A stretch of 64,000 nucleotides of DNA, taken from positions 64,067 to 128,066 of the forward strand of contig JAZPZY010000065.1 in the NCBI GenBank assembly GCA_045544955.1, in the 5' to 3' direction. Made by a program: the position numbers and the translations under genes. Below the pieces are notes generated by a model that saw nothing but the letters and a program-made list of their open reading frames with translations, made no database searches and was not told the DNA's origin. Numbering within the stretch: position 1 is the stretch's first letter; the number at the start of each line of letters is the position of its first letter. The DNA comes from Eubacteriales bacterium (GTDB lineage Bacteria > Bacillota > Clostridia > Oscillospirales > CAG-272). This document shows, in pieces, positions 15,384 through 63,955 of this stretch.

Positions 15384-15746
15384 GGGGGCGTAAAGGTTTC
15401 GACGGGGATTTTGAGACATGATAAGCGGGTAGAGGTTGGGGAACCTCTTTAATCATCCCCGACTTAAATTAAACGCTGACAATAGCGAACTCGTAGCTGC
15501 ATAAGCTACCGCGGCTTTAAGCCGCCTCGTCCGCGTAGGGAGTGCTGCGGCTCTGCCCGGGCGTCAAATCAGCAGCGAACGTGAACCGTGATTTTGCTTT
15601 TGTAACGGTCATGCATTAAAAAGCTACCGTTGAGCACAGCCTGCGTACCGGCGGTGCTCCCGGGAAATACAAAAGATACGCTGCACCCGGAGAAAGTTGC
15701 GTCAAGAGGTTTTCGGACAGGGGTTCGATTCCCCTCGCCTCCACCA
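15384..15746 (+). ncRNA. ssrA: tmRNA
   Basis: The 5' GGGGGCG pairs with the 3' CGCCTCC-ACCA, including a G3.U pair (alanine identity). It has GGTTTCGACGGGG near the 5' end and a GGGGTTCGATTCCCC T-arm. The predicted tag reading frame is GCT GAC AAT AGC GAA CTC GTA GCT GCA TAA (15475..15504), giving ADNSELVAA. Confidence 0.93.
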
Positions 15747-56059: not shown

Positions 56060-56887
56060 ATGCGTTTATCGGAAAACATCAAACGGCTGCGTCTTGAAAA
56101 GAATCTGACGCAGGAACAGCTGGCCGAAAAGCTTGGCGTATCTGCCCAGGCCGTTTCCAAATGGGAAACCAGCGACACCTATCCCGACGGCACGCTTCTC
56201 GTTCCCCTTGCCCGGGAACTGGACGTTTCTCTGGACACCCTGTTTGGCAACGATTCTGTTTCCATGGCAGACGTATCGAGGCGAATCCTTTCTCTGATTC
56301 ATGATACCGACGCCAAAGAACGCTTTCACACAGCCCGTGATATTGGCTGGCAGATCGAGCGTGGCTTGTTCAACTGCGGGATGGAGATAGATAAGCAGTA
56401 TGATCCGGAGGAGATCAAAAAGCGGCACGACGCTTCCTACATCCTGGACGACACCGGCTTTACCGTGATCTCAAACGGGAAAGAACCGTTCTTCTCCGTA
56501 TTTCCGGAACCGGAAGAGGGATTCGGTCATTTTCTGAAGGACAAGGAGGATCTGCAAAAGATCTTCGCGGCACTGTCGCATCCGGATACCATGAACGCAC
56601 TGATCTGTCTGTATAAAAAAACGGAGAATTACGTTTTTGAAAGTGCCGTTCTGGCAGCGGAGTGCGGCATTGAAAAGGAGAAGATGGATCCGGTACTGGA
56701 CGATCTGATCCTGCTGAAGATTTTGTGGAAGCAGGAGCTGACTGTCAACGGGGAGAGCCGTACTCTGTACGTCTCACAGCCGAGCCACAAGCTCATCGCA
56801 CTGTTTCTGATGGCCGGAGAGATCCTTTATAAAGGCGGTTACTGCCTGCAGTCTCACCATAGGAATACACCGTTTATTAAGAAATAA
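56060..56887 (+). CDS. XRE-family HTH regulator, with the same architecture as the preceding gene
   Basis: Start at ATG 56060 (GGAGGAAAATAAG upstream). LTQEQLAEKLGVSAQAVSKWETSDTYPD. Confidence 0.8.
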   Translation: MRLSENIKRLRLEKNLTQEQLAEKLGVSAQAVSKWETSDTYPDGTLLVPLARELDVSLDTLFGNDSVSMADVSRRILSLIHDTDAKERFHTARDIGWQIERGLFNCGMEIDKQYDPEEIKKRHDASYILDDTGFTVISNGKEPFFSVFPEPEEGFGHFLKDKEDLQKIFAALSHPDTMNALICLYKKTENYVFESAVLAAECGIEKEKMDPVLDDLILLKILWKQELTVNGESRTLYVSQPSHKLIALFLMAGEILYKGGYCLQSHHRNTPFIKK

Positions 56888-56896
56888 TCACAGACC

Positions 56897-56931
56897 GCCG
56901 AGAGGAACCGTGATGGTATCTCTCGGCGGTT
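56897..56931 (+). repeat. 35-nt hairpin repeat, left copy
   Basis: GCCGAGAGGAACCGTGATGGTATCTCTCGGCGGTT. It is identical to the right copy at 28 of 35 positions and doubles as a terminator-like hairpin. Confidence 0.8.
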
Positions 56932-57058
56932 TCTTTATAGACTGTTTCATATTTTTATGATATAATTATAAAAAATTAGAATCAAGTTCGAACCAAAATT
57001 CAAAAGTGACGACTATACGGGTGAACGTTCAAAAGCATTCCGGAAAGCAGGTAATTTA

Positions 57059-58687
57059 ATGACAAACGATGAAATCATTCAATATTATGATTATCTGATA
57101 AGACTTGCAACATCAAAATGCAACTCGCAAAGTGATGCCGAAGATCTTGTGGGTGATACAATGCTTGCGGCTTTTGCCTATATGCATCGCGGAGGAGTAA
57201 TAGAGCATCCCAAAACTTGGCTCACCAATACGCTTTACCACAAACATAATGATAACCTAAGAAAAAAGTATCGAGCTCCCGTTACAATATGTTTGGACGA
57301 GAGTGTAGAGATTGCGGAGGATGAAGACGAAGAATACTTCGCCTCCGAAGAAGCATCTAAGGTACGTAAGGAGTTAAATCATCTAAGCTTTATTACACGC
57401 GAGGTTCTGATACGCTTTTATTTTGGGAATCAAAGTGTTTCGGATATTGCCGAGGGACTTGGTATTCCCGAAGGTACGGTAAAAAGCCGATTGTCAGCAG
57501 GTCGTAATCAGATGAAGAAAGGACTTGAAACTATGGAAACACGAGAAAACTATTTACCCGGTGAGATGTGTCTGTCTTTCGGCGGATCGGAAGGCTTAAA
57601 AGGAGAGCCTATGTCGCTTGTTGAGGGTGATCTGATTGCAACGAATCTTTTGATTCTTGCATATGACAAGCCTATTACTATCAGTGATCTTTCCAAGGCA
57701 ATCGGTATTCCCGCCGCTTATATTGAGCCAATCATCAAAAAGCTTGTAGATGGCGAACTTATGGTGCAGATGGATAGCGGCAAAGTATATACGGATTTTA
57801 TCATTACAAGACCGCAAAATTCACTCAACAACTTCAAACCGCAGCTTGAGTTTACTCATAAACACTTCGAGACAGTATGGAATATTATCGAAAGAATGTC
57901 CGATAAGATTTTAAAAATGTCTTTTGTAAAAGAAATGAGCACCGAGGAAAGATCAAAGCTTGATAGATATGCCGTTTTGAAAGCGTTACAAGACTTTCAG
58001 CATTTTGGAACAGGAAGGATTGAAGAGCCCAAGTTTCCGAAGCGTAAGGACGGCGGTTGGTGGTTTGCTCAAGCCACTGTATTTGATGCAGGATACAATA
58101 TGAAGGAGTATAACGAAGCATCTGAATATTGCATTCACGGTGGTCACCGCACCTCAGAAGCAGTGGCAGTAGGACGAACCAAGCGTATCCGTTTCTATGA
58201 ATTTGACACTACGTTGTGGGATAGCCCCCACCGTTACGGTGGCGCGTATGAGCTGTACTTCAAGCATATCATTCCATTGCTGTGGAGCATTTACGACAGT
58301 ATTTCACTTGAAGCATCAGATATCCCCAATGAGTTTATCTCCTATATACCCACTCTTGAACGATTGGGTGTAATTGGATACGCAGAGGATAGATTGTGTG
58401 TTAAGATCCCCGTGTTAAAGAAAACGGAATACGATGAAATATGTGCGGTGATTAAAAATGCAACCGAAGAAATTACAACAGCGATTGGAGAAGAATTCAC
58501 AGCTTTTACTGCATCTATGAAAACGCCTATCCCCAAGCACCTTACATCCGTTCCCGAACTTTTCAGATACCACGTAGCGTCGAAGTATTTTGTTATGTCT
58601 ATCGTCAGAGAAGCATACGGCAAAGGATTGCATCTGAAAGATGTTGATTATTGTTGCCCTCCGGCGGTATTGGTGTACGAAGAATAA
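57059..58687 (+). CDS. ECF-type sigma-70-family factor with a ~370-aa C-terminal extension
   Basis: Region 2 is DAEDLVGDTMLAAF ... WLTNTLYHKHNDNLRK. Region 4 is SVSDIAEGLGIPEGTVKSRLSAGRNQMKKGL. About 370 further residues follow with no obvious TM segment. Confidence 0.75.
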   Translation: MTNDEIIQYYDYLIRLATSKCNSQSDAEDLVGDTMLAAFAYMHRGGVIEHPKTWLTNTLYHKHNDNLRKKYRAPVTICLDESVEIAEDEDEEYFASEEASKVRKELNHLSFITREVLIRFYFGNQSVSDIAEGLGIPEGTVKSRLSAGRNQMKKGLETMETRENYLPGEMCLSFGGSEGLKGEPMSLVEGDLIATNLLILAYDKPITISDLSKAIGIPAAYIEPIIKKLVDGELMVQMDSGKVYTDFIITRPQNSLNNFKPQLEFTHKHFETVWNIIERMSDKILKMSFVKEMSTEERSKLDRYAVLKALQDFQHFGTGRIEEPKFPKRKDGGWWFAQATVFDAGYNMKEYNEASEYCIHGGHRTSEAVAVGRTKRIRFYEFDTTLWDSPHRYGGAYELYFKHIIPLLWSIYDSISLEASDIPNEFISYIPTLERLGVIGYAEDRLCVKIPVLKKTEYDEICAVIKNATEEITTAIGEEFTAFTASMKTPIPKHLTSVPELFRYHVASKYFVMSIVREAYGKGLHLKDVDYCCPPAVLVYEE

Positions 58688-58702
58688 AATATAACGATAA
58701 TT

Positions 58703-58737
58703 GCCGAGAGCGACCGTTTTAGTTACTCTCGGCGGTT
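58703..58737 (+). repeat. 35-nt hairpin repeat, right copy
   Basis: GCCGAGAGCGACCGTTTTAGTTACTCTCGGCGGTT. Confidence 0.8.
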
Positions 58738-58820
58738 ATTATATTAACATTGCGATTTCACAAAAACAAAAAAAATCCAAAACGATCGCCGATTGGCAAT
58801 AATTTCGGATTTCTCTTATT

Positions 58821-58846
58821 TGGCTCCCACGGCACGGGCTCGAACC
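58821..58846 (-). other. Fragment resembling a tRNA 3' end (T-loop, acceptor strand and CCA); not a complete tRNA
   Basis: The minus strand reads GGTTCGAGCCCGTGCCGTGGGAGCCA. No complementary 5' acceptor strand (TCCCACG) or cloverleaf could be built from the upstream sequence. Confidence 0.35.
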
Positions 58847-59050
58847 AGCGACAACCTGATTGAGAAATTCAGACTTCATTTGTCCAGCAAAATATGCACG
58901 TCATCGTGGCCGACTTCCGAAAACACAGTCGTGCAGCACGGCTCGGCGCTTCGCTTACACTTGCCGCGCTGCTCTCCTTGTTTTCGTTATCTCCCGTCGA
59001 AAAACGGTTCACCGGACCGTTTTTCTCGGTCGCCTACCGACTTCGCCCGC

Positions 59051-60610
59051 TCAGTCGGTAAGCATCGGCTGCGGATCGGGTGTCACTGGTGGGAAATCAA
59101 CAAGTGGCAAACAAAAACAGACTACCAAATGGTAGTCTGTTTTGTTTGGCTCCCCCGTGTAGTTCATATCCGAAATTATGTCTGACTCTTCAAGCTCGGC
59201 AAAGGTAACTGTTTTTGTCCCATTTTTGTAATTGAATGTAATCACCAATTTGTCATCATAGAGGAAAATCGCATTGACAAAGGCATCTATAAATTTTCTT
59301 CTGTGCTCAAATATGTTTGTATCAAAGGTTCGGAACTTGTGGAACCAAAACACAATAATTTCTCTTGAAACCATCGGCTTACCAATCTCCTCTTTGGCGA
59401 TTTGGATCTGCAGCTCGCTTTTTCGTGACTCAAGCTCCGCCATCTTATTCCTGGTGGACTCGCCGCAGATACCCATCATAATCGCATTAAGAAGATTCTC
59501 GATTCCCTTTTCAACCTCGGCAAGCTGGTTTTGGAGAACAGGAACAACTGTGTTTTCCGCTTCCTGCAATTTCATCACATCGTCGGCAAGCTGCTCAATC
59601 AGCGCGTCATCGTATACGATTTTCTTGATTTCAGCTATTACCAAATCCTCGATCCACGTTTTTCTCACCGTTTTCTTATCGCAGCCGAGCTTACGTTTTA
59701 CACCCGAGCATTTGTAATAGCGATAGACTGTATCATCACGGCGTTTTCCACTTTCACCTGCCATCATTCGTTGACATTTACCGCAGAACAACTTTGTAGA
59801 AAGCAGATATTCTTCCTCCGCTTTGTGCCGTGCCGGAGCCTTCTTGTTGGATTCCATTCGTCTCTGCACAGCATCAAACAGTTCTTCCGGAACGATGGCT
59901 GGAATCCCGTTTGGAATTACCGTATCACGGAAACGGTACTCGCCAAGATATCTCCTGTTTCGCAGAATGTTTGACACAACATTTTCTGAGATCACCGCAC
60001 CTTTGCGGTTACGAATCCCTCTCGCTTGCAGATCATCCACGATCTCTTTCATCGTGTATCCGTCGATATACTTTTGGAAGATTTCGACTATGATCGGTGC
60101 ATACAACGGATCTATTTGAAAATGTTTGTCTTGATCGGTTACATATCCAAGAGGAATACTGCCGTTTGATTTACAGGCAAGCGCATTATCGGTCATGCCG
60201 CGGATTGTCTTTTCTGCAAGTTCTGCGGAATAATATTCGGCAACACCTTCAAGCAGAGATTCAAGGAGTATGCCGTCAGGTCCATCAGAAATCGCTTCGG
60301 TTGCGGATACGACTTTCACGCCGTTCTTACGCAAGGCCCGTTTATAAAAGGCGGAGTCATAGCGGTCACGGGCGAATCTGTCAAGCTTCCACACAATGAC
60401 CACATCAAAGGATTTACCGGCGCTGTCCTTGATCATTTTCTGAAAGTCGGGACGGTTATCCGTCTTCGCCGAAAATGCACGGTCTATGTATGTGCCCACG
60501 ATCTCAATGCCGTTTTTATCGGCAAACGCTGTGTTTTCACGAATTTGTCCTTCGATTGACTCCTCGCGCTGGTTGTCCGAGGAATATCGCGCGTAGATTA
60601 CGCCTTTCAT
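59051..60610 (-). CDS. Large serine recombinase (integrase)
   Basis: A resolvase catalytic domain (GVIYARYSSDNQREESIEGQ, VIVWKLDRFARD), a recombinase domain and a zinc ribbon (FCGKCQRMMAGESGKRRDDTVYRYYKCSG), and a coiled-coil. The last ~30 codons run through the hairpin into G+C-rich DNA. Confidence 0.9.
   Translation of the reverse strand: MKGVIYARYSSDNQREESIEGQIRENTAFADKNGIEIVGTYIDRAFSAKTDNRPDFQKMIKDSAGKSFDVVIVWKLDRFARDRYDSAFYKRALRKNGVKVVSATEAISDGPDGILLESLLEGVAEYYSAELAEKTIRGMTDNALACKSNGSIPLGYVTDQDKHFQIDPLYAPIIVEIFQKYIDGYTMKEIVDDLQARGIRNRKGAVISENVVSNILRNRRYLGEYRFRDTVIPNGIPAIVPEELFDAVQRRMESNKKAPARHKAEEEYLLSTKLFCGKCQRMMAGESGKRRDDTVYRYYKCSGVKRKLGCDKKTVRKTWIEDLVIAEIKKIVYDDALIEQLADDVMKLQEAENTVVPVLQNQLAEVEKGIENLLNAIMMGICGESTRNKMAELESRKSELQIQIAKEEIGKPMVSREIIVFWFHKFRTFDTNIFEHRRKFIDAFVNAIFLYDDKLVITFNYKNGTKTVTFAELEESDIISDMNYTGEPNKTDYHLVVCFCLPLVDFPPVTPDPQPMLTD
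59115..59142. terminator. Palindromic hairpin inside the 3' end of the recombinase ORF
   Basis: AAACAGACTACC-aaat-GGTAGTCTGTTT, with T-runs on both strands. Confidence 0.55.
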
Positions 60611-60631
60611 CTGCTCCCTCCTCTTCAGTTA

Positions 60632-62089
60632 TTAGTCAAACATTGTTTGCTGATTGAACAGAGTCCCGTTCATTTTAATAATCTTTGCATTTGGCAGAGC
60701 ATCTTCATACTTGTATATTGATGCAACAATCAATTGATGATCTAAAAAATCCCGTTGTAGGATTCTTAGCATAATGTCAATCGTATCTTTCTCTACTTCA
60801 CGTCCACTCGGTGAATCGCAAAAAATTGGCAATGCATACCCAATTTTATCACTTAGCAATTTAATAAAAGCCAATTTGTAAGCGAAAACCATCTTATGCA
60901 ACACGGCACCCGATTTCCCCTTTAAATTATGAGTGAAAATATCTATTTTGTAATCAAACGGAAGATTCAATTCTTGAGTGTATTTACAAATAATTTCATA
61001 GGCTTGAAGAATCCACGGATTATCGTTTTTTGTTCTCGTTTTCAATATTTTAGTCAAATCAGATTTCTCTTTTTTTAATTGCTTTAATATTGACTCGACC
61101 TCAACAGCACTAATCCCTTGAATATTTGCTAATCTTTTAGTTAATTCTTCATCAAGCGTTGGCAAACTAAAAAGTGTCATCTGCTTTTGTTGTTGAGAAG
61201 TAAGATCTGCGAGTTGTTTCTTTATCGAATTACGTTGAGCAACAAGCATGCTTCTACGAGCATGATTTATTTCTGTTACATCTTGATAATCCAACAGGGT
61301 TTCACTATTGACTGGTATCGGACTATCATCTATAGGATTTCTTACAAATATTTTTCTGCATTCTATGTAATCGGAAAAACTCTTATTTGACTTGATAATA
61401 TCATTGACACGAGCTAATTCGGCTTCTACCTCTTTCAAAAGAAATTCCTTTTCGCCAATTTTAGCGGCCAGCTCTTGATCAAACGTCTGATAATCAATGA
61501 CCACATCGTCCGATTGATTAATAGCTGCTTGATATTCAGCGATATTAGACATCAAGTTGTACTGCGCAATTTTTTTATCTAAAGCAGCTATTTTAGCGAC
61601 GATTTCATAACTTTCATCACTCTCGTCGTTTTTTAAGCCTCTAAAAAAGCTCTCAATGGAAAAACGATTAGTACCAATGATCGTTCCTCGATTGAGCAAC
61701 GTCCATCCTTTCTCTTGGTCAAAATAAATCGTTCCAAGCAGATTGTATAAAACTTCGGCATTAGTTATTCCAAACAAAAACGTATGTGCTGCTGATTGCT
61801 CAATAGGCAGATCAAATTCTGTTTCGTTAATTTTTAGCAATTGGTCTTTACGCATCAAAACATATTTTTTATCTTGATGCATTAATTCAAGGACGAACTC
61901 ATAATTCTCAAATTTCACCAATTCAGTGTTGGGAATTGAAAACCCAAGCGTGTATAAAACAGCTCGCATGAGAGTGGTTTTACCGGTTGAGTTTTCTTTG
62001 CTGTAAAAAACACAGACATCGCTATTAAGGTCAACAGTTTTCCAGATGTGACTACGATATTCTCTGATCTTAAATTCTAACAAATTCAC
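60632..62089 (-). CDS. Coiled-coil SMC/ABC-type ATPase (LmuB/DUF3732-like), 485 aa
   Basis: Walker A VCVFYSKENSTGKTTLMRAVLYTLG, a heptad-rich charged insertion of about 170 aa, then LPIFCDSPSGREVE (Walker B/D-loop-like). Very AT-rich. Confidence 0.6.
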   Translation of the reverse strand: MNLLEFKIREYRSHIWKTVDLNSDVCVFYSKENSTGKTTLMRAVLYTLGFSIPNTELVKFENYEFVLELMHQDKKYVLMRKDQLLKINETEFDLPIEQSAAHTFLFGITNAEVLYNLLGTIYFDQEKGWTLLNRGTIIGTNRFSIESFFRGLKNDESDESYEIVAKIAALDKKIAQYNLMSNIAEYQAAINQSDDVVIDYQTFDQELAAKIGEKEFLLKEVEAELARVNDIIKSNKSFSDYIECRKIFVRNPIDDSPIPVNSETLLDYQDVTEINHARRSMLVAQRNSIKKQLADLTSQQQKQMTLFSLPTLDEELTKRLANIQGISAVEVESILKQLKKEKSDLTKILKTRTKNDNPWILQAYEIICKYTQELNLPFDYKIDIFTHNLKGKSGAVLHKMVFAYKLAFIKLLSDKIGYALPIFCDSPSGREVEKDTIDIMLRILQRDFLDHQLIVASIYKYEDALPNAKIIKMNGTLFNQQTMFD

Positions 62090-63096
62090 AGTTTCGCAGC
62101 CTCCTTAATTTGTTTGATTTTTATACGTCGTGTAATTACAGTCAATAGAAGCAACTTTATCACGGCCTCTCGTTTACACAGATCGGTTATCGTTTCAAAG
62201 TCCTGCTCATATTGCTTCCATTCAGATTTTACATATTCATATTTATAGTTGTTTTGATCTGAAACAAAATTGCGCTTCTGCAAAAAATCCCCTGTTATTT
62301 TTGATGAATATGGATAATCACAAACACGCCTGTCAATGATATTTCGATATTCTTGAACCAATCCCTCGTAATCATCATAGTCACACACTTTATTGAATTC
62401 GTTTTCATCTAAAGGTGGATCAATGACAAGAATAATTACGGGAAGTATGATCTCATTTTTGCTCAGAGTTAATTCTTTTTGCTCTTTGGGTTTGTCAGAA
62501 CAGTTAACCATAAAAGTCTCAAACCAACTATCCAACAGCCGTTTGCTGTATGAAGGATCACCTATAGCATCACGTAAGAATTCTGCTATTTTTGCTTTTA
62601 CATTAGCGAATTTATTATCTCCTTCTCCGAAAAAGTTCAGTATATGTATCTGAAGCTTTTCAGTTGGGAAGTCTGGAGATACTTTGGATTTTATTTTCTC
62701 TTGGTCTTCAATTGAAAGTGTTGAAAAATCATATACATGTTCGTATTGAAAAGCCGAAGCTATTTTACTTGAAAGTGGATTTGCAATGTTTGTAATATAA
62801 ATCAGTTTTATTGCATCGCCATTTTTATTATCAGAATCTAACAATGTTAGGGCGGCATTTAAATTCGTAGAGGCGGTGCTTTGATTTCCAATCTGCGTTA
62901 CGGATTTGGCTTGAGCATAAATTTTTCCAGTAGGGAGCGTAAACTCAATGTCATCGCTTTTGCCCTCCATTTTCATAGATGTGAATTCTTTCACATTATC
63001 AAGCATTAACGTAATTCCTGCACCGACCTGGAACACCCAACCATATGCGGATGCGGATGCATTTGTATCTACTTCTTTTCCATCGATGATAGACAT
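62086..63096 (-). CDS. Putative PD-(D/E)xK nuclease-domain effector (Cap4/DUF4297-like N-terminus), 336 aa
   Basis: SAYGWVFQVGAGITLML ... MKMEGKSDDIEFTLPTGKIYAQAKSV fits an E..D(D/E)...QxK nuclease core. The C-terminal ~230 aa are unassigned. It overlaps the ATPase gene by 4 nt. Confidence 0.5.
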   Translation of the reverse strand: MSIIDGKEVDTNASASAYGWVFQVGAGITLMLDNVKEFTSMKMEGKSDDIEFTLPTGKIYAQAKSVTQIGNQSTASTNLNAALTLLDSDNKNGDAIKLIYITNIANPLSSKIASAFQYEHVYDFSTLSIEDQEKIKSKVSPDFPTEKLQIHILNFFGEGDNKFANVKAKIAEFLRDAIGDPSYSKRLLDSWFETFMVNCSDKPKEQKELTLSKNEIILPVIILVIDPPLDENEFNKVCDYDDYEGLVQEYRNIIDRRVCDYPYSSKITGDFLQKRNFVSDQNNYKYEYVKSEWKQYEQDFETITDLCKREAVIKLLLLTVITRRIKIKQIKEAAKL

Positions 63097-63119: not shown

Positions 63120-63833
63120 TTATTCTTCCACAACACCAATCACTCTACCGCAACAGTAAACGCTGTCGTTCTCATCAAGTCGGATCGGCTTATACTTCTC
63201 ATTATGTGAAATCAAACACTTGTCGCCAAGCTCCTTGATATAAGCATCACCGTTGACAACGAAGATGCCAACCTCACCGACATCGATGGAGTCGCACTTT
63301 TCCACAAACACTCTGTCGCCGCCGTGATAGGTAGGCTCCATACTGTCGCCCGCAATCGGTATAACATAATCGGCAGCTTCTGCCGCAGCGGATTCCTCCA
63401 CCAATATCTGTTCCGGTGTTTCCGTTTCAAGAAAGTTGCCCGTTCCTGCGGATGCCGGATAATTGAAGAAATCAATCTTCAGCATACGAGCCTTGGGCTT
63501 TCGAGAAGCAGCAGTCACACGCTTGTATTCGCTGTTAATAAGATAATCCACAACCTCTTTACCGTGTTCATCAAGAGCACGGTATTTTTGTATCGTGCTC
63601 CATTCTGCGGCGGTGGGATGCTGTGTCATAGATTTGCATCCGATCAACTCATCGGCAGATACACCGAGCAGATCGCAAAGACGAGCGAGCTTGTCACAAT
63701 CAGGGCGACCGATGCCTTTCTCCCAGTTATATATAACTCTGCCCGAACTCTCACCGAGCGCGTCGGCAATGTCCTGCTGTGTCATTCCTTTTTGTAAGCG
63801 ATACTCTTTGATTCGCGCACCGATCGTACTCAT
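63120..63833 (-). CDS. cI/LexA-type repressor (XRE HTH plus S24 peptidase domain)
   Basis: HTH MTQQDIADALGESSGRVIYNWEKGIGRPD. S24 Ser/Lys dyad in IPIAGDSMEPTYHGGDRVFV and GDAYIKEL. Confidence 0.9.
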   Translation of the reverse strand: MSTIGARIKEYRLQKGMTQQDIADALGESSGRVIYNWEKGIGRPDCDKLARLCDLLGVSADELIGCKSMTQHPTAAEWSTIQKYRALDEHGKEVVDYLINSEYKRVTAASRKPKARMLKIDFFNYPASAGTGNFLETETPEQILVEESAAAEAADYVIPIAGDSMEPTYHGGDRVFVEKCDSIDVGEVGIFVVNGDAYIKELGDKCLISHNEKYKPIRLDENDSVYCCGRVIGVVEE

Positions 63834-63866: not shown

Positions 63867-63895
63867 ATTTTATCATATAAAGTTGTATTTGTCAA
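63867..63895 (-). promoter_or_regulatory. Repressor-side promoter
   Basis: On the minus strand: TTGACA (63895..63890), 17 nt, TAAAAT (63872..63867). Confidence 0.6.
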
Positions 63896-63926
63896 GCGAA
63901 TACTCCAAAATGATTATAGAAAACTA

Positions 63927-63955
63927 TTGACATTCCAAGAATATTATAGTATAAT
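63927..63955 (+). promoter_or_regulatory. Rightward (early/lytic-side) consensus promoter
   Basis: TTGACA (63927..63932), 17 nt, TATAAT (63950..63955). The palindrome ATATTATA-G-TATAATAT (63941..63957) overlaps it. Confidence 0.65.

Follow-up and report, generated by a model that had tools for sequence, protein, structure and literature searches.

The DNA analyzed here (the window) is a stretch of 64,000 nucleotides from an Eubacteriales bacterium (contig JAZPZY010000065.1, positions 64,067 to 128,066 of the forward strand), and close to its right-hand end lie two adjacent genes, called A and B below, that we studied as a candidate defense system of the Lamassu type. According to the open reading frame (ORF) list, gene A (62086-63096, minus strand) starts with ATG and encodes 336 amino acids (aa), while gene B (60632-62089, minus strand) starts with GTG and encodes 485 aa; the two overlap by 4 nt, GTGA, at 62086-62089. 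In Pfam, the gene preceding A encodes a cI/LexA-type repressor with HTH_3 and Peptidase_S24 domains (cI; 63120-63833, minus strand), and the gene following B encodes a large serine recombinase with Resolvase, Recombinase, and Zn_ribbon_recom domains (int; 59051-60610, minus strand). These are the first and the last gene of an apparent cI-A-B-int unit. An earlier reading made from the letters (the sequence-only reading) had described two same-strand genes with this overlap between a serine recombinase and cI, and the ORF list and Pfam agreed with it exactly. It had also called the pair the most AT-rich coding DNA in the window, having counted 35% G+C in the line at 61081-61140. That count was exact, and the composition bore out the claim: G+C content was 35.7% in A and 34.5% in B, compared to 45.4% in int, 48.6% in cI, and 52% in the whole window, and all four of the lowest-G+C 1-kb windows in the 64 kb begin within 60501-62001. 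Because such long ORFs stand in DNA of 35% G+C and have hundreds of full-length homologues, A and B are genuine genes rather than chance ORFs.

Scans of A and B against Pfam, NCBIfam, and PHROGs returned nothing usable, with AAA_23 as the best match (E value of 0.48). In PADLOC, A matched PDC-M46A (PDLC04661) at an E value of 2e-69, with residues 10 to 335 aligned to profile positions 4 to 334 of 335. The AlphaFold2 (AF2) model of A had a predicted local distance difference test (pLDDT) value of 85 and a predicted template modeling score of 0.79. It has an N-terminal domain of approximately aa 1 to 180 (62557-63096, minus strand; boundary taken from the model), predicted to be a PD-(D/E)xK nuclease of the Cap4/DUF4297 type, and a mostly helical C-terminal domain of aa 185 to 336 (62089-62544, minus strand). 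When the model was compared to the PDB with Foldseek, the first match was the LmuA chain 9ux7_C (E value of 3.4e-5; template modeling [TM] scores of 0.48 and 0.52; 341 columns), which was aligned over the full length. The next matches were Salmonella enterica LmuA, Hachiman HamA, Cap4, and the HerA-DUF (DUF4297) assembly. The same model found no Foldseek match at an E value of ≤0.001 among viral structures (BFVD).

A has 148 close homologues, and an exhaustive profile search retrieved 628 clusters at 50% identity, of which 150 were listed. Within that list, proteins of full length span approximately 312 to 385 aa, and 91% of the 269 fetched sequences fall between 315 and 365 aa. In an alignment of 116 diverse sequences, down to 23% identity, the only invariant columns were E44, D49, Q62, K64, and N103. 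The predicted catalytic core, E44-G-K-S-D48-D49-I-E51 ... Q62-A-K64 (62905-62967, minus strand), is drawn from these columns and from the profile alignment. The peptide motifs quoted in the sequence-only reading are all present, with the spacer between MEGKSDDIEF and IYAQAKS being 6 residues and not 8. A shallow profile of A (37 sequences of ≥50% identity) searched against PDB sequences yielded ribosomal L23 noise alone. With the profile of 116 sequences, the best match was LmuA of the type I Lamassu system from Bacillus cellulasensis NIO-1130 (BcLmuA), weak at an E value of 0.031. The alignment pairs G-x-x-F/Y-Q ... E-D-x-E-I ... Q-x-K with ...EDFEI...IQVK on the BcLmuA side, and the core of A aligns with the BcLmuA stretch that includes the lysine whose replacement (K59A) renders BcLmuA nuclease dead (bioRxiv 10.1101/2025.06.23.660979). 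Cap4_nuclease was the sole recurrent Pfam family among the relatives of A, with a weak match in 13 of the 116 members.

One relative, WP_011091109.1 of the Leuconostoc plasmid pLC22R, shares 25% identity with A in a full-length alignment, and its RefSeq annotation reads "dsDNA nuclease domain-containing protein." This protein matched PDC-M46A at 1e-194, scored 31.8 bits against Pfam Cap4_nuclease, above the gathering score of 26.2, and matched the PADLOC LmuA model PDLC03848 at 2.6e-12 over residues 2 to 299. As judged from these comparisons, this protein provides a clean transitive link from A to LmuA and Cap4. Altogether, our data identify A as an LmuA-like effector of the PDC-M46A family, that is, an LmuA with a Cap4-type nuclease N-domain and a helical C-domain. 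In the model, the C-terminal part corresponds in position and fold to the LmuA C-terminal domain, and a role in LmuB docking and tetramerization is predicted for it from the BcLmuAB structure. There, the C-terminal domain anchors BcLmuA to the dimer of LmuB, on the distal part of its coiled coil (bioRxiv 10.1101/2025.06.23.660979). In a 576-aa representative of the family, P0374, the A profile (positions 11 to 257) covers residues 4 to 255 alone, which suggests a nuclease part fused to a different C-terminal region.

B likewise matched its counterpart in PADLOC, PDC-M46B (PDLC04663), at an E value of 8.6e-129, with residues 1 to 481 aligned to profile positions 1 to 479 of 483. The PADLOC LmuB models matched B at approximately 1e-14, in the N- and C-terminal head halves alone; the best of them, PDLC00252, is also the best PADLOC model for BcLmuB (3e-191), and BcLmuB reciprocally matched PDC-M46B at 1.3e-17. 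In a search of the PDB, a 36-sequence profile of B matched the LmuB chain 9ux7_A end to end (E value of 9.8e-13; residues 1 to 478 versus 1 to 546), followed by Rad50 with a marginal E value of 0.28, and hhalign aligned the B profile with BcLmuB over 438 columns at 98.3% probability and 24% identity. The AF2 model of B (pLDDT of 80.6) was placed by Foldseek closest to 9ux7_A, i.e., BcLmuB (E value of 2.2e-17), then to type II LmuBs, and then to Rad50 and SMC heads. Pfam DUF3732 did not match B at an E value of ≤1, nor did it match BcLmuB (residues 1 to 546). The missing match was dropped as an argument against LmuB since the validated BcLmuB lacks it too. A Septu affiliation of B was also rejected, given that the PtuA matches (1e-4) span just the first ~50 residues, in the P-loop region. 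By its profile and reciprocal matches, B reads end to end as a homologue of type I LmuB.

The model of B runs from an N-terminal head half through an outbound helix, a beta-hairpin apex (248 to 259), and a return helix to a C-terminal head half, as in an SMC/Rad50-type ATP-binding cassette (ABC) ATPase. The Walker A motif or P-loop, SKENSTGKTT with K37 (61973-62002, minus strand), is invariant from T35 to T39 (T35, G36, K37, T38, and T39), and K37 occupies the position of the ATPase-dead mutation K37A of BcLmuB (bioRxiv 10.1101/2025.06.23.660979). Also invariant in the family are Q125 of the Q-loop, S393-G394, D425-S426-P427, D447, H451, and Q452. The predicted C-terminal head (60734-60916, minus strand) thereby contains a signature-like K-S393-G394-A and an H-loop, D447...H451-Q452. 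It also carries a deviant Walker B motif, PIFCDSP (60809-60829, minus strand), of the form hhhhD-S with no catalytic Glu; hhhhDSP occurs in essentially all members, and IFCDS, aligned with FCMDS of BcLmuB, fits the consensus hhhhD[Q/S/T/E] given for short Lamassu (PMC12663957). The antiparallel coiled-coil insertion covers aa 158 to 354 in the model (61028-61618, minus strand), approximately 200 aa in place of the ~170 first proposed, and both arms appear kinked, with helix breaks at approximately 193 to 202 (outbound) and 307 to 327 (return). Its predicted apex, aa 245 to 267 (61289-61357, minus strand), is a small beta-hairpin (strands 248 to 250 and 257 to 259) without a CxxC zinc hook. None of the 120 full-length B-family members contains CxxC within residues 180 to 330, and BcLmuB has CQYC at the aligned apex position. 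Lengths in the B family range from 459 to 504 aa, with a median of 487.

For both proteins, then, the best match among solved structures is a subunit of one type I Lamassu complex, 9ux7, and the adjacent, co-oriented pair matches PDC-M46A and PDC-M46B at full length. The Lamassu system reportedly goes back to work by Doron in 2018. In its original form, Lamassu is an operon of just two genes, LmuA-LmuB, that lacks LmuC; this arrangement now goes by the name of type I (bioRxiv 10.1101/2025.06.23.660979; PMC12663957), and the LmuC-less clade in the LmuB tree is designated clade S (PMC12663957). We consider it likely that A and B form a "short" Lamassu of type I, divergent and without LmuC, in the same family as the PADLOC candidate PDC-M46. 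PDC systems are 145 "phage defence candidates" collected on guilt by embedding in BREX, DISARM, and type I restriction-modification (R-M) loci (10.1101/2024.01.29.577857). Duplicate PDC-M46 and Lamassu calls have already been noted in the Bacillus cereus group (PMC11811056), while the supplement of that paper does not equate PDC-M46 with any DefenseFinder name. A hidden LmuC was rejected, since the 4-nt overlap and the gaps of 23 and 21 nt on either side of the pair leave no space for it and no neighbor is conserved.

The sequence-only reading had taken the upstream gene for a Cap4/DUF4297-type nuclease and the downstream gene for a split ABC/SMC protein like LmuB. Both assignments were upheld, the former by the LmuA, Cap4, and HamA fold matches and the invariant E44, D49, Q62, and K64, and the latter by 9ux7_A as the top match and by hhalign. 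PADLOC, with both proteins matched end to end, the AlphaFold monomers, with LmuA and LmuB chains of 9ux7 on top in Foldseek, and the pairing of the two genes in other genomes (below) all spoke for its Lamassu-like interpretation. The features for which it had suggested an undescribed system or a minimal subtype do not make the pair new; the family is already catalogued as PDC-M46, and the layout is that of type I. In Pfam, neither A nor B gave the direct DUF4297 or DUF3732 matches that it had anticipated. The three features it had regarded as unusual have precedents: the absence of LmuC defines type I Lamassu, the effector's C-terminal part is matched by that of LmuA, and short, variable-length LmuBs with zero to two zinc hooks have already been reported, with LmuC lost in one clade (PMC12663957).

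A was immediately followed by B in all 13 intact genome loci (those with an intact A and DNA downstream of it). Most of these loci keep the 4-nt overlap, and the linked pairs include copies of 32 to 39% identity from Spirochaetaceae and rumen metagenome-assembled genomes (MAGs). At L013 (9947-10977 of CP091734.1, a complete Clostridiales chromosome), A is frameshifted into ORFs of 203 and 145 aa and B is intact; this copy is possibly decaying. The pair also occurs on eight Lactobacillaceae and Leuconostoc plasmids and in Ruminococcus phage NatCom_2329, where it lies at the left end and both proteins are 32% identical to those of the window. Flanking genes vary among loci, so there is no conserved third gene, and they are typically defense or mobile-element genes. 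Neighbors include a DNA methylase, McrB-like AAA_5, LlaJI, GmrSD, Vsr, and a Schlafen-like gene at L019 to L021; ThsB_TIR, caspase, TIR_2, and AbiH at L022 to L025; a type I R-M system (hsdMSR) directly upstream at L033; and AbiH, within a conjugative element, at L034. At L032, the pair lies in a small insertion amid housekeeping genes.

In the window, the gap between cI and A is 23 nt and contains AGGAGG, and that between B and int is 21 nt and contains the ribosome-binding site GAGGAGG; both ribosome-binding sites are strong, and neither gap contains a terminator. Consensus scans found a near-consensus promoter-like site with an extended -10 element upstream of cI, TTGACA-17-(TG)TAAAAT (63895-63867, minus strand, 11/12), which reads into cI, and on the opposite strand a perfect one, TTGACA-17-TATAAT (63927-63955, plus strand, 12/12), which points out of the window. 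These features make a single cI-A-B-int transcript likely. The layout of the back-to-back promoter-like sites (63867-63955) resembles a genetic switch. The window ends 167 nt past cI; in L001, a contig of a Ca. Flemingiibacterium MAG, the gene past this point encodes a co-oriented 386-aa regulator with HTH_3 and tetratricopeptide repeat (TPR) domains (RRNPP-like).

L001 is 95.6% identical to the window and collinear with it from 64000 to 59147, where the two diverge. The break in homology falls at a perfect 18-bp hairpin (59107-59147, minus strand; RNA fold of -30.3 kcal/mol, z score of -4.65) within the 3' end of the window int ORF, which has 519 aa versus 488 aa in L001 and runs 31 codons further, through the hairpin. 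The element end or att junction is probably at this hairpin, near 59147, and the hairpin is a probable terminator and/or boundary. Just outside the apparent element end, there is a second low-G+C block (56500-59050; 0.40 to 0.45 versus 0.53). It contains a gene (57059-58687, plus strand) whose 542-aa product combines regions 2 and 4 of sigma-70 with a long C-terminal extension, and similar sigma-like genes of 524 to 552 aa lie beside related cI-A-B-int cassettes (L003, 18897-20555; L027, 1645-3219). Their recurrence could reflect islands that are related or arranged in tandem, or else a neighborhood preferred for integration.

The cI-A-B trio recurs in L001, L003, and L027 to L030. In L003 (5411-9072 and 13198-17044), an Eubacteriales MAG, genes for AAA_25, NikA/MobC, and a MobA/VirD2 relaxase come before the trio (81% DNA identity), and the serine recombinase differs from the window int, with 51% identity; this carrier is an integrative mobilizable element, not a prophage. 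R-M genes (a methyltransferase, RE_BsaWI-like, and MvaI/BcnI) are inserted in L003 between B and the serine recombinase. In L027 to L030, the trio diverges from a reverse transcriptase and STM3845 pair, sigma-like genes, and an HTH-TPR regulator, and no phage genes were found within 8 kb of the trio. The divergent pair there (RVT_1 reverse transcriptase and an STM3845-family protein, ~4692-6541 in L027 coordinates, in elements with a cI-A-B cassette of 81% identity) looks like a second, retron-like or defense-associated reverse transcriptase (DRT)-like, defense system on the same small element. Because the pair is low in G+C compared to cI and int and different integrases accompany the same trio, A-B bears the mark of exchangeable cargo. 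The prophage label of the sequence-only reading was not demonstrated. A search of phage records with the DNA of 56.5 to 64 kb matched the integrase segment alone (unannotated fecal phage contigs, 66 to 73% identity) and is uninformative on the A-B module, and the L003 relative sits beside a relaxase; a distant pair does occur in a real phage, the Ruminococcus phage above.

The mechanism that we propose follows by homology from BcLmuAB and VcLmuACB (bioRxiv 10.1101/2025.06.23.660979; PMC12663957). B would dimerize via its kinked coiled coil, and one A monomer would be held on the distal B coiled coil by its helical C-terminal domain, which would keep the nuclease monomeric and inactive. When a phage or plasmid invades, its DNA ends or replication intermediates would be encountered by the B heads; ATP binding would require K37, the deviant Walker B motif would slow hydrolysis, and both would modulate sensing. 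Once released, A would self-assemble through its C-terminal domain, and the paired nuclease domains (E44, D49, Q62, and K64) would degrade DNA indiscriminately, with abortive infection or loss of the invader as the outcome. From the place of the pair inside the apparent cI-A-B-int unit of an integrated mobile element, its expression would probably be constitutive, driven by the repressor promoter for as long as the element stays integrated, and as cargo it would shield the host, and hence the element, from other mobile DNA. A more specific proposal, which we regard as speculative and unlikely, is that PDC-M46, with its hook-less B of uniformly ~485 aa and its own clade of A, is an independently minimized Lamassu with a dimer closed by the beta-hairpin apex in place of a zinc hook or hinge, LmuA docking and release unlike those of BcLmuAB, and, in the cI-A-B-int sublineage, repressor-wired expression. 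If so, immunity would be on during integration and off upon cleavage of the S24 repressor, sparing the element's own replicating DNA.

Several observations weigh against the assignment to type I Lamassu. The window A has no direct match to any Pfam or PADLOC LmuA model, so that its designation as LmuA rests on fold, motif, and transitive homology, and the Foldseek match between A and BcLmuA is moderate (TM of ~0.5, root mean square deviation of 7.7 Å, 15% identity). B is without the CxxC hook by which the dimer of BcLmuB is closed, its coiled coil is ~75 residues shorter, and dimerization and A-docking geometry may differ accordingly. PDC entries are, by their curators' own label, candidates without experimental support (10.1101/2024.01.29.577857), and a full-text literature search found no functional study of PDC-M46. 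Finally, co-transcription with cI is a prediction from spacing and consensus scans.

The same machinery might serve mainly in competition between mobile elements and, like DdmABC of Vibrio cholerae, rid the cell of plasmids or of rival integrative elements, with phage defense as a secondary effect. The range of carriers suits such a role, since it takes in a serine-recombinase integrative element (the window), the relaxase-bearing element of L003, the conjugative element of L034, small mobilizable plasmids, and a phage. Nonetheless, competition is compatible with phage defense and does not exclude it, type I Lamassu has been validated against phages (bioRxiv 10.1101/2025.06.23.660979; PMC12663957), and carriage on small plasmids speaks against indiscriminate plasmid killing; we consider a mainly competitive function possible, if on the unlikely side. 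A and B could instead be a distinct ABC ATPase-plus-nuclease system that merely resembles Lamassu, with other means of sensing and activation and a logic nearer that of Septu, Gabija, PARIS, or OLD. PADLOC does list PDC-M46 under a candidate entry of its own, from a collection in which the curators sought to leave out systems already known (10.1101/2024.01.29.577857). The zinc hook is missing, the coiled coil is shorter, B is uniformly ~485 aa, LmuA models do not see the window A, and there are matches to PDC-M22B and PDC-M68B besides the weak ones to PtuA. The PtuA matches, however, are confined to the P-loop region, whereas homology to BcLmuB spans the whole protein, coiled coil and both halves of the head included. 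The best structural matches of A and B are two chains of a single Lamassu complex, LmuA models match within the A family over residues 2 to 299, and the short, hook-less LmuB of V. cholerae functions as Lamassu (PMC12663957). On balance, a separate system is improbable.

A role outside immunity would make the pair a module for DNA repair, recombination, or maintenance and addiction, like SbcCD/Rad50-Mre11 or a toxin-antitoxin-like stabilizer. LmuB descends from SbcC-like repair ATPases (PMC12663957), the heads of Rad50 and SbcC are good structural matches of B, and the repressor and recombinase genes of the element run in the same direction as the pair and apparently share a transcript with it. 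Yet B is partnered by an effector nuclease of the Cap4 type whose C-domain is LmuA-like, and not by an Mre11/SbcD phosphoesterase, the pair is also found without mobile-element core genes, in defense islands and beside R-M systems, and its G+C content lies 10 to 14 points under that of cI and int, as befits exchangeable cargo. We regard such a function as very improbable. A divergent type I Lamassu is the interpretation that we retain for A and B.

This interpretation ties an untested catalogue entry of ~630 A clusters at 50% identity to the mechanistically understood type I Lamassu. Matches to PDC-M46, which are common in gut Clostridia and on plasmids of lactic acid bacteria, become readable as Lamassu and are no longer unknowns. 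The pair also offers a natural minimal LmuB, hook-less and with the shortest coiled coil among those compared, with which the needs for DNA-end sensing and effector sequestration could be probed. Beyond this relabeling and the minimal variant, the pair is an expected type of mobile-element defense cargo and a fairly ordinary find. Elsewhere in the window, a transfer-messenger RNA gene (15384-15746, plus strand; Rfam RF00023, 167.7 bits; ARAGORN tag peptide ADNSELVAA) was the sole RNA-family or tRNA-type match.

Compared to known systems, the pair is architecturally indistinguishable from PDC-M46 (Payne et al., bioRxiv 10.1101/2024.01.29.577857), for which the catalogue states no mechanism; we draw the connection to type I Lamassu in the present analysis, and the duplicate calls in the B. 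cereus group hint at it (PMC11811056). Among solved systems, type I BcLmuAB of B. cellulasensis NIO-1130 (PDB 9ux7 and 9ux8) shares with A-B a two-gene operon with the effector first and no LmuC. Like A, BcLmuA joins a Cap4-type nuclease N-domain to a helical C-domain. In BcLmuB, as in B, the ABC head is split, K37 is the Walker A lysine, the Walker B motif is of the deviant form hhhhDS, and the antiparallel coiled coil is kinked, in BcLmuB at mid-arm. Identity is low, at ~15% for A in the Foldseek alignment and 18 to 24% for B. A has 336 aa versus 315 aa in BcLmuA and is missed by LmuA hidden Markov models, and B has 485 aa versus 562 aa in BcLmuB, which makes its coiled coil ~75 aa shorter; a beta-hairpin stands where BcLmuB carries a CQYC zinc hook. 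A CxxC hook does not define Lamassu, because short LmuBs carry zero to two hooks (PMC12663957), and the differences between the pair and BcLmuAB are within the variation reported for short Lamassu. Type II short Lamassu (V. cholerae DdmABC/VcLmuACB and S. enterica LmuACB; PDB 9uxh, 9hqx, 9hqu, and 9hr5) also combines a Cap4-nuclease LmuA with an SMC-like LmuB, which in V. cholerae lacks a zinc hook, as does B (PMC12663957). DNA-end sensing and LmuA tetramerization are proposed to be common to it (bioRxiv 10.1101/2025.06.23.660979), and its LmuA and LmuB are the second-tier structural matches of A and B. It requires LmuC, however, encoded between lmuA and lmuB, in contrast to the 4-nt overlap and the lack of a conserved third gene here, and its LmuB has ~630 to 650 aa versus 485 aa in B. 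Cap4 (CBASS), HamA (Hachiman), and DUF4297-HerA share with A the DUF4297/Cap4_nuclease fold and the E...D...QxK core, whereas their regulatory domains or partners are SAVED, the HamB helicase, and the HerA ATPase, respectively, with neither an LmuA-type C-domain nor an LmuB. Rad50 and SbcC, like B, have an ABC head split by an antiparallel coiled coil (structural E values of 1e-9 to 1e-5), but they differ from B in their much longer coiled coils, zinc hook, canonical Walker B motif, and Mre11/SbcD phosphoesterase partner.

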